Below, piece after piece: positions 20,880 to 22,678 of a stretch of DNA of 64,000 nucleotides. How positions within the stretch are numbered: the first letter of the stretch is position 1; the number at the start of each line of letters is the position of its first letter. A model generated the notes under the pieces. It did not search any database and was not told the origin of the DNA. It was given only the letters and a program-made list of their open reading frames with translations. A program made the position numbers and the translations under genes. This DNA is from an uncultured Alphaproteobacteria bacterium. GTDB taxonomy: Bacteria; Pseudomonadota; Alphaproteobacteria; RF32; CAG-239. Where the stretch lies: NCBI GenBank assembly GCA_944391485.1, contig CALXTQ010000020.1:1849-65848 (forward strand), read 5' to 3'.

Positions 20880-20908
20880 TTGACATCGCTTGTTTATTGT
20901 GTTAATAA
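20880..20908 (+). promoter_or_regulatory. Predicted sigma70 promoter for lysK
   Basis: TTGACA (20880-20885), 17-nt spacer, TAATAA (20903-20908). About 80 nt upstream of the lysK ATG, with AAGGA 7 nt before the ATG. The 290-bp AT-rich divergent intergenic region is shared with the kinase operon. Confidence 0.5.
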
Positions 20909-20991
20909 AGAGTTAAATTATTACATTGCACACAAGATTTATACATAACCAGCCTATATTTTTTATAGGGTGTAAACTATAAGGATTTTTT

Positions 20992-22635
20992 ATGCCAAAA
21001 TTTGATAAAAAAGAGCTTGATAGAGTAAATGCATGGCCTTTTGAAGAAGCCAGAAAAATTTTACAAAGACTAGGAAATAAAGTACCCGAAAAAGGTTTTG
21101 TACTATTTGAAACAGGATATGGACCTTCTGGACTTCCCCACATTGGTACTTTCGGAGAAGTTGCAAGAACAAGTATGGTACGTTATGCTTTTGAACAATT
21201 GTCTGATATTCCAACAAAATTATATGCCTTCTCTGATGACATGGATGCTTTACGAAAGGTTCCAACAAATGTCCCCAACCAAGATATGTTGCAAAAATAT
21301 ATAGGGCATTCTTTATCTTCAATTCCTGACCCTTTTGGAAAGTATAATAGTTTTTCCGAACATAATAATAATATGTTACAAAAATTTTTAGATTCATATG
21401 GTTTTGATTATGAATTTAAAAGCTCTACTGATATGTACAAAAGCGGTATTTTTGATGAAAAATTAATTCGCGTTCTTGAAAACTATAATAAAATTATGGA
21501 CATTATGCTACCCACTCTCGGAGAAGAACGCAGAAAAACATACAGTCCAATTATGCCAATATCTCCATCAACTGGTGAAGTATTACAAGTTCCACTTTTA
21601 AACGTAAATCCATCAAAAGGCACTATTGTATTTCAGGACGTTGACGGAAGAGAAGTTGAACAAAGTGTATTAAAAGGAAATGCAAAATTACAATGGAAGG
21701 CCGATTGGGCTATGCGCTGGGCCACTTTTGACGTAGATTACGAAATGTCTGGTAAAGATTTATTAGATTCAGTAAGATTATCAAGCAAAATAACCTCAAG
21801 ACTAGGAGGAAGACCTCCTGTTGGCTTATCATACGAGCTATTTGTAGACGAGCAAGGACGTAAAATTTCAAAATCTATTGGCAATGGAATTAGCATTGAA
21901 GAATGGCTGAGATATGCCAATCCTGAAAGTTTGGCCTTATTTATGTATAAAAAGCCTACTTCTCAAAAAAAATTACATTTTGATGTTATTCCCAAACATG
22001 TAGAAGAATATTATCAATACTTAGGAGCTAGTAAGACTCAATCAGAATTACAAAGTCTCAACAATCCTGTAAGATATATTCACCGAGAACATGAGCTACC
22101 AAATGAACGTTTGCCAATGTCATATAATTTATTACTAAATTTAGCAAGTGTAGCTAATGCTGAATCTAAAGAAGAGTTGTGGAATTATATTAGTTCTTAT
22201 AATAAGAATTTATCTCCAGAAAACTCTCCTGCTCTTGACAAAATAGCTGGGTATGCAATTAATTACTATCAAGATTTTGTAAAACCAAATAAAAAATATA
22301 GAACGCCTACGGAAGAAGAAAAAGTTGTACTAAATGAAATCTCTGATGGATTAACTATTATTCAAGCACAACAACAATCAGAAAAAGATATTGAAACTCT
22401 AATATATGATATTGGTAAAAAACATTATGGGCAAGAAAAGCTTAAGGATTATTTTAAAATGCTTTATGAAACAATGTTAGGACAACAAGAAGGTCCTAGA
22501 ATGGGAACTTTTATTGCTGTATATGGCATTGACAAAACTAAATCTTTGATTAATAAAACTATTAGAGATAATTCAAATAATGAATCTAAAATATTAAATC
22601 AACAAATCAAAAATAAATTGAAATATTCTCGTTAA
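20992..22635 (+). CDS. lysK: Class I lysyl-tRNA synthetase
   Basis: 547 aa. HIGH-type motif GLPHIGTFGEVAR near the N-terminus, KMSKS-type motif RKISKSIGNG, and overall LysRS class I (LysK) architecture. AT-rich codon usage like the surrounding island. Confidence 0.9.
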   Translation: MPKFDKKELDRVNAWPFEEARKILQRLGNKVPEKGFVLFETGYGPSGLPHIGTFGEVARTSMVRYAFEQLSDIPTKLYAFSDDMDALRKVPTNVPNQDMLQKYIGHSLSSIPDPFGKYNSFSEHNNNMLQKFLDSYGFDYEFKSSTDMYKSGIFDEKLIRVLENYNKIMDIMLPTLGEERRKTYSPIMPISPSTGEVLQVPLLNVNPSKGTIVFQDVDGREVEQSVLKGNAKLQWKADWAMRWATFDVDYEMSGKDLLDSVRLSSKITSRLGGRPPVGLSYELFVDEQGRKISKSIGNGISIEEWLRYANPESLALFMYKKPTSQKKLHFDVIPKHVEEYYQYLGASKTQSELQSLNNPVRYIHREHELPNERLPMSYNLLLNLASVANAESKEELWNYISSYNKNLSPENSPALDKIAGYAINYYQDFVKPNKKYRTPTEEEKVVLNEISDGLTIIQAQQQSEKDIETLIYDIGKKHYGQEKLKDYFKMLYETMLGQQEGPRMGTFIAVYGIDKTKSLINKTIRDNSNNESKILNQQIKNKLKYSR

Positions 22636-22650
22636 CCATATCAACTAAAA

Positions 22651-22678
22651 GCCTAGAGAATACTCTAGGCTTTTTTTT
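22651..22678 (+). terminator. Intrinsic terminator of lysK
   Basis: Perfect 8-bp stem GCCTAGAG-AATA-CTCTAGGC followed by T8, 16 nt after the stop codon. Confidence 0.8.

Follow-up and report, generated by a model that had tools for sequence, protein, structure and literature searches.

The 64,000-nucleotide stretch analysed here (the window; contig CALXTQ010000020.1 of assembly GCA_944391485.1, from an uncultured alphaproteobacterium) carries in its AT-rich left part a gene, lysK, for a class I lysyl-tRNA synthetase (LysRS). The gene lies divergently beside a three-gene operon, one member of which encodes a class II aminoacyl-tRNA synthetase (aaRS)-like domain (Table 1). The lysK product is a genuine, intact class I LysRS (NF001968 / PF01921). 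It scored 798.9 bits against the NCBIfam profile NF001968 (lysine--tRNA ligase; cutoff 648), and residues 8-526 aligned to profile positions 8-525 of 528, i.e. over the full length. The HIGH motif reads HIGT (residues 50-53) and the KMSKS motif KISKS (residues 291-295), and these align with HVGN and KMSGS of the P. horikoshii LysRS in 1IRX, to our knowledge the only solved LysRS-I structure. The gene is under strong purifying selection: against the copy of the L087 type, nonsynonymous divergence (dN) was 0.048 and synonymous divergence (dS) 1.44, giving a ratio (omega) of 0.033. From the equivalog-level profile match and this low ratio, LysK is predicted to lysylate tRNA-Lys.

Table 1. Features of the lysK region, in window coordinates (aa, amino acids; nt, nucleotides; UTR, untranslated region; for context B see text)
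Feature	Position	Strand	Remarks
Exact 13-nt copy of the tRNA-Gln(ttg) 3' end	16200..16212	+	Left end of the lysK island; sole copy in the window
Mrr-type restriction endonuclease	16581..17069	-	Pfam 97.4 bits; first gene of the lysK island
Class II (Lys/Asp/Asn-type) aaRS-like domain fused to dTMP kinase	17171..19027	-	Motif 2 and 3 arginines replaced
Peptidase S51 family protein	19036..19740	-	Pfam 126.5 bits
AAA_28 (NadR-like P-loop kinase) protein	19733..20704	-	Pfam 54.9 bits; first gene of the divergent operon
lysK cassette	20852..22680	+	Only stretch common to context B loci L002 and L004; blastn 98.9% over 1833 nt
Putative promoter	20880..20908	+	-35 TTGACA 20880-20885; 17-nt spacer; -10 TAATAA 20903-20908; TG 20900-20901
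5'-UTR hairpin CCTATA-TTTTT-TATAGG	20953..20969	+	Small
Ribosome-binding site AAGGA	20981-20985	+	3' of the 5'-UTR hairpin
lysK, class I lysyl-tRNA synthetase	20992..22635	+	547 aa; NCBIfam match and motifs
Intrinsic terminator	22647..22684	+	12-bp stem, AATA loop, T-run; stem-loop 22647-22674
Truncated Mpi-family serine recombinase	32616..32969	+	Profile positions 86-197 of 203; right edge of the AT-rich region

Compared with 199 housekeeping sequences, the island LysK deviates at six positions that are conserved in at least 95% of them (G86A, T109S, L246F, D338E, L450I and L495M); all six changes are conservative and none lies in the HIGH or KMSKS motif. Exact copies of the protein occur on 23 contigs. 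Among LysK homologues of at least 57% identity, its own 90%-identity cluster is the most populous, with 132 members against 58 in the next, a count that overstates the diversity of LysK because the cluster (that of P0001) also holds an unrelated 405-aa decarboxylase, P0123, and its variants, presumably via a chimeric member. We considered P0123 as a truncated LysK and rejected this; it is the neighbouring decarboxylase, misclustered. Phage, plasmid and IMG/VR collections held no close LysK: the best matches there were 43-53% identical and lay on chromid-like replicons or a 500-kb viral contig, and a phage or plasmid origin of lysK was rejected on this basis.

Base composition sets the gene apart from the core DNA of its own contig. 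The GC content is ~30% over positions 1-33000 of the window and ~50% over 33000-64000. At third codon positions (GC3) it is 0.186 for lysK, like the 0.17-0.23 of the adjoining three-gene operon, whereas the 12 core genes compared on the right-hand side lie at 0.53-0.66. In ~80 alphaproteobacterial loci the GC content of housekeeping lysK tracks that of its own flanks, and the lysK of the window is therefore an outlier relative to the 50% GC core. The preliminary description had placed a class I LysRS in AT-rich DNA foreign to the core; the profile score and the GC3 comparison bear this out, and the island is in addition strain-variable (see below).

The same description had called the sequence upstream of lysK a near-consensus sigma70 promoter. 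The perfect -35 hexamer and the 17-nt spacer agree with this, but the -10 hexamer matches at only three of six positions, without the T at position 6, and a consensus promoter scan did not call TTGACA-17-TAATAA. Promoter-like sites in the AT-rich stretch numbered 12 against 14.5 expected from shuffles, which is chance level. The putative promoter is supported mainly by conservation: the blocks AAAAAGTTGAC (the -35 block) and ATTTATTGTGTTAA (the stretch up to the -10) are invariant in copies that are 82% identical overall. In the L087 lineage the stem of the 5'-UTR hairpin is kept with changed bases, and its fold (z = -1.0) is not significant. A search for Rfam matches in 16000-24000, with E values up to 1, found none. 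We considered a regulatory RNA leader for lysK, such as a T-box or riboswitch, and rejected it on the lack of an Rfam match and of a significant UTR fold. The strong intrinsic terminator reported downstream of lysK was recovered by the terminator scan, with a predicted fold of -17.3 kcal/mol (z = -5.9; none of 200 shuffles was as good). The L087 lineage has a lysK terminator of its own at the same place, different from and non-homologous to that of the window. We also observed that the terminator loop is reverse-complemented between two genomic settings of the gene, AATA in the window (22662-22665) and TATT in L002 (11670-11673), with an identical stem.

These two settings emerged among metagenome assemblies that encode the exact 547-aa protein. 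The arrangement of the window (context A) is also found in L001, L003, L005 and L006, and a different one (context B) in L002 and L004. The blastn homology between them starts 28 nt upstream of the -35 box and stops where the terminator ends, and so covers exactly the unit from promoter to terminator, in agreement with the earlier suggestion that lysK is a self-contained transcription unit. That it would act as an autonomous transcription unit is strongly supported. Within this cassette the open reading frame (ORF) showed no difference in 1644 nt between the window and context B, whereas divergence is ~10% in the ~140 nt of promoter and UTR and in the terminator part. L001 and L005, both of context A, differ from the window ORF at eight positions, all of them synonymous and all in its first 561 nt. 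Taken together, the identical ORF, the diverged flanks and the eight differences in L001 and L005 point to a very recent exchange of the lysK ORF, by recombination or gene conversion, between two older, diverged cassettes. Comparison of the window with the housekeeping lysK loci of relatives revealed no conserved synteny.

Context A itself also varies. At window position 23093-23097, other context A assemblies carry ~610 extra bases (L001 12106-12716) and an intact minus-strand ORF of 242-259 aa, of which only a 109-aa remnant is left in the window at 22761-23090. The extra DNA of L001 holds a 165-nt repeat, 94% identical to window 27128-27292, which is possibly a small mobile repeat.

In context B, lysK is part of a cluster of eight genes (cluster B). 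An S66 peptidase and a B12-binding radical S-adenosylmethionine (SAM) methyltransferase are encoded on one strand; on the other follow, in order, a 493-aa class II LysRS-like protein, a SAM methyltransferase, two dCTP-deaminase-like (DCD) proteins, a diaminopimelate (DAP)-decarboxylase-like protein and LysK. Beyond lysK lie a DUF3768 gene, a methylase fragment and a tyrosine integrase, and the DNA past the integrase shows at least four alternative right flanks. lysK is the terminal gene of the cluster in all 13 of the B-type places shown. A second lineage of cluster B (L087-L092 and L184-L190) is collinear with L002, with 81% nucleotide identity over 9.3 kb, lysK included, and between the lineages the eight genes show dS values of 0.8-1.4 and omega values of 0.02-0.11. 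In both lineages lysK keeps the conserved promoter block and a terminator of its own, even though it follows the cluster in the same orientation. Judged from these comparisons, context B is the long-term home of lysK, which appears to have co-diverged with cluster B.

The B-type LysK variant was found on 669 contigs, among them the 2.03-Mb ERZ28759795:contig_9494, and the flanking core variants on 280 to more than 1000. Core proteins flanking the cluster are named after Azospirillum sp. CAG:239 or 'Alphaproteobacteria bacterium'. Cluster B thus appears to be near-fixed among Azospirillum sp. CAG:239-type alphaproteobacteria of the gut.

The class II LysRS-like protein of cluster B (the B paralog) scored 339 bits against the LysRS2 model, below the cutoff of 468. 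It keeps class II motifs 2 and 3 and an anticodon-binding domain. Alignment to 3A74 revealed the pocket changes E240D, H270Y, E421M, N424D and F426A, numbered by what we take to be the corresponding residues of E. coli LysS. We therefore regard the B paralog as a putative enzyme of the class II LysRS-like type whose amino-acid/ATP pocket has been remodelled. Of the other cluster B products, the S66 peptidase belongs to the MccF superfamily, and the decarboxylase matches DAP decarboxylases weakly.

Class I is the normal LysRS in this alphaproteobacterial lineage, and the ~80 lysK loci are in line with this; the presence of lysK alone is therefore not evidence of a second LysRS. Outside its own 90% cluster, the best homologues of the island LysK are 62-67% identical. 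In a simple neighbour-joining tree, built with no support values, the island LysKs stand together on a long branch whose sister clade comprises enzymes from metagenome-assembled genomes (MAGs) of rumen and gut, with lysK genes of 37-39% GC. The island LysKs lie apart from the LysKs of human-gut alphaproteobacteria of ~50% GC (the Acetobacter sp. CAG:977 cluster, L032 and P0449), which are encoded in a conserved helicase-lysK-M15 locus at host-like GC. The phylogeny raised in the preliminary description as a way to trace the gene thus does not match the housekeeping lysK of these ~50% GC relatives.

Two rumen MAG loci (L009 9977-13046 and L102 5458-8545) are tandem dual-LysRS loci, in which a housekeeping lysK is directly followed by a genuine class II lysS, with scores of 518 and 521 bits against the cutoff of 468. 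The lysS gene is inserted between lysK and a conserved 466-aa gene, and the sister genomes L007 and L008 are without it. Counting cluster B, the window operon and L009/L102, three independent arrangements thus place lysK close to a gene of the class II LysRS type.

The divergent operon beside lysK is conserved in L093, L095 and L096, where it occurs without lysK. These lysK-less contexts, all alphaproteobacterial, are beside era/rnc/lepB, beside folA-thyA (L095) and beside tRNA-Gln(ctg), and the homology between the window and L096 is confined to 17173-20720. Since the operon stands without lysK in three other genomes, and lysK is stably linked to cluster B, the proposal that lysK serves the adjacent operon is weakened. 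The folA-thyA neighbourhood in L095 suggests a link between the aaRS-like/dTMP kinase operon and thymidylate metabolism. We found 24 homologues of the aaRS-like domain family; the fusion to dTMP kinase is present only in the closest three clusters, and the family (17171-19027; P0274-P0291) is restricted to gut and rumen alphaproteobacteria. In the subfamily of the window type, F or Y stands in place of the motif 2 arginine and A or T in place of that of motif 3, substitutions that are conserved within it; more distant homologues in the family retain both class II arginines. The window paralog reached 64 bits against the LysRS2 model (cutoff 468). With the B paralog it shares just 25% identity, and we rejected the idea that the two form one family, since the distance of each to true LysS is about the same as that between them. 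We likewise rejected a known anti-phage system, as PADLOC found nothing for either LysK or the B paralog, nor for the AAA_28, S51 peptidase and DCD proteins, its only signal being generic kinase/radical-SAM similarity to the candidate PDC-M51. A YpsA (SLOG-family) gene lies near cluster B (L087 2156-2620) and also near the AAA_28-S51-aaRS-like operon (L095 10576-11112).

The left boundary of the island that holds lysK can be placed with the help of L003, in which core DNA of 50% GC ends in a full tRNA-Gln(ttg) and the island begins exactly at the tRNA 3' end, followed in order by Mrr, the three-gene operon and lysK. Given this junction and the 13-nt tRNA-Gln copy, we therefore take window 16200 to ~33000 as the lysK island. 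It appears to be a mosaic, located at tRNA-Gln in tandem with a second island (window 1-16199) whose left end lies beyond the window. After ~33000 the GC content rises, and this right island-core junction was seen in the window alone. The lysK island contains no intact integrase within the window, only the truncated serine recombinase at its right edge. In L191 and L192 the core is 98.9% identical, and a different island, with no nucleotide similarity to the window, occupies the tRNA-Gln (L191 1-9640; L192 1-2380); its cargo includes a 525-aa tyrosine integrase, a resolvase, DUF3768 and type I restriction-modification (R-M) genes. For all island modules, relatives are confined to gut or rumen alphaproteobacteria. 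A host from the Neisseriaceae or Pasteurellaceae was considered and rejected, as a search for their DNA uptake sequences found none.

Further contents of the islands and core are as follows. The second island encodes an 834-aa AAA ATPase (2130-4634), an ankyrin protein (5357-6091), type I R-M S and M subunits (6975-10092), a pentapeptide-repeat protein (10189-11619) and two Fic proteins with helix-turn-helix domains (13515-15929). Within the lysK island, an ATPase_2/DUF234 protein (27714-29114) matches the PADLOC candidate defence family PDC-S27 with 216.8 bits, and a 1172-bp tandem duplication (29139-31482; 91-99% identical) holds two ORFs of 261 aa each (29157-29942 and 30329-31114), neither of which matched any family. 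The 50% GC core to the right encodes QseBC, MdoH, PqiBC and MlaE; the sole named homologue of the window MdoH is from an alphaproteobacterial MAG, at 66% identity. Together with the relatives of the island modules, this makes it most likely that the host is an uncultured alphaproteobacterium of the gut, near the CAG:239 group. Core features at 38972-40438 and 42482-46275 include an ankyrin-repeat protein with core-like composition and a 766-aa Orn/Lys/Arg decarboxylase, which adjoins an amino-acid permease in a typical acid-resistance pair.

How might these observations be explained? We tentatively favour a reading in which lysK is an auxiliary, self-protective and separately transcribed LysRS. 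The genome would then contain a second LysRS; the co-inherited cluster would make or handle a lysine-like or lysyl-nucleotide compound; this product would interfere with LysRS; and LysK, being insensitive to it, would keep tRNA-Lys charged. Such an arrangement would follow the logic of a 'duplicated, protected target', as for aaRS genes in antibiotic clusters. The cassette would have recombined from its cluster B setting into the mosaic island at tRNA-Gln, where it would have come to lie beside the class II LysRS-like operon. Consistent with this, lysK is stably co-inherited with cluster B, as judged from the collinearity at 81% nucleotide identity and the similar dS of the eight genes, and not with the window operon. 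In cluster B, nucleotide-metabolism enzymes and an S66 peptidase stand beside the B paralog. Dual LysRS genes have a precedent in the related rumen alphaproteobacteria that carry lysK followed by lysS, and the foreign GC3, the separate LysK branch and the variable island content at tRNA-Gln fit as well. Immunity genes are often separately regulated, a pattern that the promoter block and terminator kept by lysK in both lineages would match, and aaRS genes occur in tiarin/trifolitoxin-like biosynthetic gene clusters (bioRxiv 10.64898/2025.12.02.691738).

Several results weigh against a self-protective LysRS. The host lineage is natively class I, so that there would be no class-switch advantage, and LysK has just six deviations, all conservative, one of them at a position (G86) that is not conserved in the archaeal 1IRX. 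The frequency of cluster B is close to that of the core genes around it, which fits an indispensable gene equally well. Its S66 peptidase scored 307 bits to B. anthracis BA3275 (an 'MccC family protein') and 74 bits to MccF, and among the called cluster B genes there is neither an exporter or transporter nor an MccB-type enzyme. As for the window operon, it is found without lysK, its aaRS-like protein has lost both catalytic arginines, and PADLOC models run against LysK and its operon neighbours gave nothing beyond generic kinase similarity.

The main alternative, only slightly less likely, is that lysK is the sole LysRS. The island-borne gene would have displaced the native one (xenologous displacement), which would make the surrounding AT-rich DNA hard to lose, and the identical ORF in contexts A and B would reflect a single essential gene between accessory modules that recombine freely. 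An essential role would account for an omega that is among the lowest in cluster B, for the near-fixation of the cluster in CAG:239-type genomes, and for an ORF without a single difference while its flanks differ by ~10%. The genomes are small (~2 Mb), the enzyme is ordinary-looking, its cluster is the most populous among LysK homologues of at least 57% identity, and a promoter and terminator of its own would suit a housekeeping gene insulated from its neighbours. However, GC3 stays at 0.19-0.24 in hosts of ~0.6 despite saturated dS, which is unexpected for a long-resident essential gene. Moreover, lysK lies by an integrase with at least four right flanks in one context, and in the other at a tRNA-Gln site that holds other islands in sister strains, whereas other gut alphaproteobacteria of ~50% GC keep lysK in the helicase-lysK-M15 locus.

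A bolder form of the self-protection reading is unlikely, if worth stating: lysK might be a portable immunity determinant of undescribed pathways based on aaRS paralogs, in which a LysRS-like enzyme builds a LysRS poison and the cassette is swapped between such clusters of gut alphaproteobacteria. The product would be a lysine analogue or a lysyl-(deoxy)pyrimidine nucleotide, and its maker the remodelled class II LysRS-like enzyme instead of one of the MccB type.

We consider it quite improbable that LysK is a partner enzyme which, jointly with the class II LysRS-like protein encoded nearby, handles a dedicated substrate, for instance a modified tRNA-Lys or an RNA resembling tRNA. The three independent arrangements that bring lysK close to a gene for a class II LysRS or a LysRS-like protein, and the anticodon-binding domain retained by the B paralog, would suit such a role, for which LysRS1 and LysRS2 provide a precedent: such pairs occur in Bacillus cereus (with tRNA-Other), in B. 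thuringiensis and in Methanosarcina (with tRNA-Pyl) (PMC2916919). On the other hand, ARAGORN detected no tRNA or tRNA-like gene in the window or the cluster B loci, the Rfam search described above was negative, the window paralog is without the motif 2 and 3 arginines and shares only 25% identity with the B paralog, and elsewhere the operon of the window stands without lysK.

Finally, that the 30%/50% GC join is an assembly chimera, or lysK a decaying, functionless hitch-hiker, is highly implausible: the GC content does change abruptly by 20 points within one contig, at a junction near 33 kb seen only in the window, but artefact is unlikely because the core-tRNA-Gln-island junction and the interior recur at 98-100% in independent assemblies from different samples (L001, L003, L005 and L006), and the lysK ORF is intact, with an omega of 0.033 and the exact protein on 23 contigs.

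Essential translation genes on mobile, foreign DNA are rare, and where found they have repeatedly pointed to natural enzyme inhibitors or to core-gene replacement. lysK is a new example of a translation gene in such DNA, in an unusually clean, easily cloned 1.8-kb cassette, and it draws attention to an uncharacterised, highly prevalent eight-gene cluster in a common uncultured human-gut alphaproteobacterium (the CAG:239 group). If it is an auxiliary copy, it flags candidate LysRS-directed chemistry; if the sole copy, it is a live case of xenologous aaRS displacement locking an island into a genome. Should the immunity-determinant form be true, a common human-gut commensal would harbour a natural LysRS-targeting antimetabolite system.

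The island gene can be compared with several known systems. Housekeeping alphaproteobacterial lysK shares with it the NF001968 family, 55-67% identity, the same motifs and the same length, apart from a Lys/Asn-rich C-terminal tail of ~20 aa. In contrast, the island lysK lies in AT-rich DNA and not in a helicase-lysK-M15 or fabI/ligA-lysK locus, its GC3 is ~0.4 below that of the core, and its identical ORF occurs in two unrelated contexts. The region as a whole resembles tRNA-targeted integrative islands in the tRNA 3'-end copy at its edge, its AT-richness, its restriction, Fic and ankyrin cargo, its strain variation and its tandem array, but differs in that the lysK island of the window is without an intact integrase of its own.

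With the dual LysRS1 + LysRS2 systems of B. cereus and Methanosarcina it has in common a class I LysRS, gained by horizontal transfer, that coexists with class II LysRS-type proteins or is at least encoded beside them. Here, however, the neighbours are divergent paralogs below the cutoff (64 and 339 bits versus 468), a true lysS being present only in L009 and L102, the host is natively class I, and neither a T-box (Rfam, 16000-24000) nor a tRNA-Other-like gene (ARAGORN) was detected. To microcin C-type clusters (MccB/D/E/F) there is a likeness at the level of fold or family only, in an amino-acid-activating enzyme, a SAM methyltransferase fold, a pyridoxal phosphate-dependent Orn/DAP decarboxylase and an S66 peptidase. 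Cluster B differs in having no ThiF/E1-like (MccB) gene among the called genes of L002 and L087. Neither an MFS exporter nor, short peptide ORFs not having been searched, a precursor peptide gene was seen in it, and its S66 peptidase resembles BA3275 more closely than MccF.

A parallel to the reading we prefer, that of a self-protective LysRS, is provided by the resistant or duplicate aaRS genes of antibiotic clusters, such as those for the LeuRS AgnB2 on pAgK84 (agnB2), the IleRS MupM (mupM) and the ThrRS ObaO (obaO). We know of no class I LysRS among them. Although lysK is without evident resistance-type substitutions, and cluster B is near-fixed with no exporter among its called genes, the two share a translation enzyme that is co-inherited with small-molecule or nucleotide enzymes on mobile DNA and is independently transcribed.

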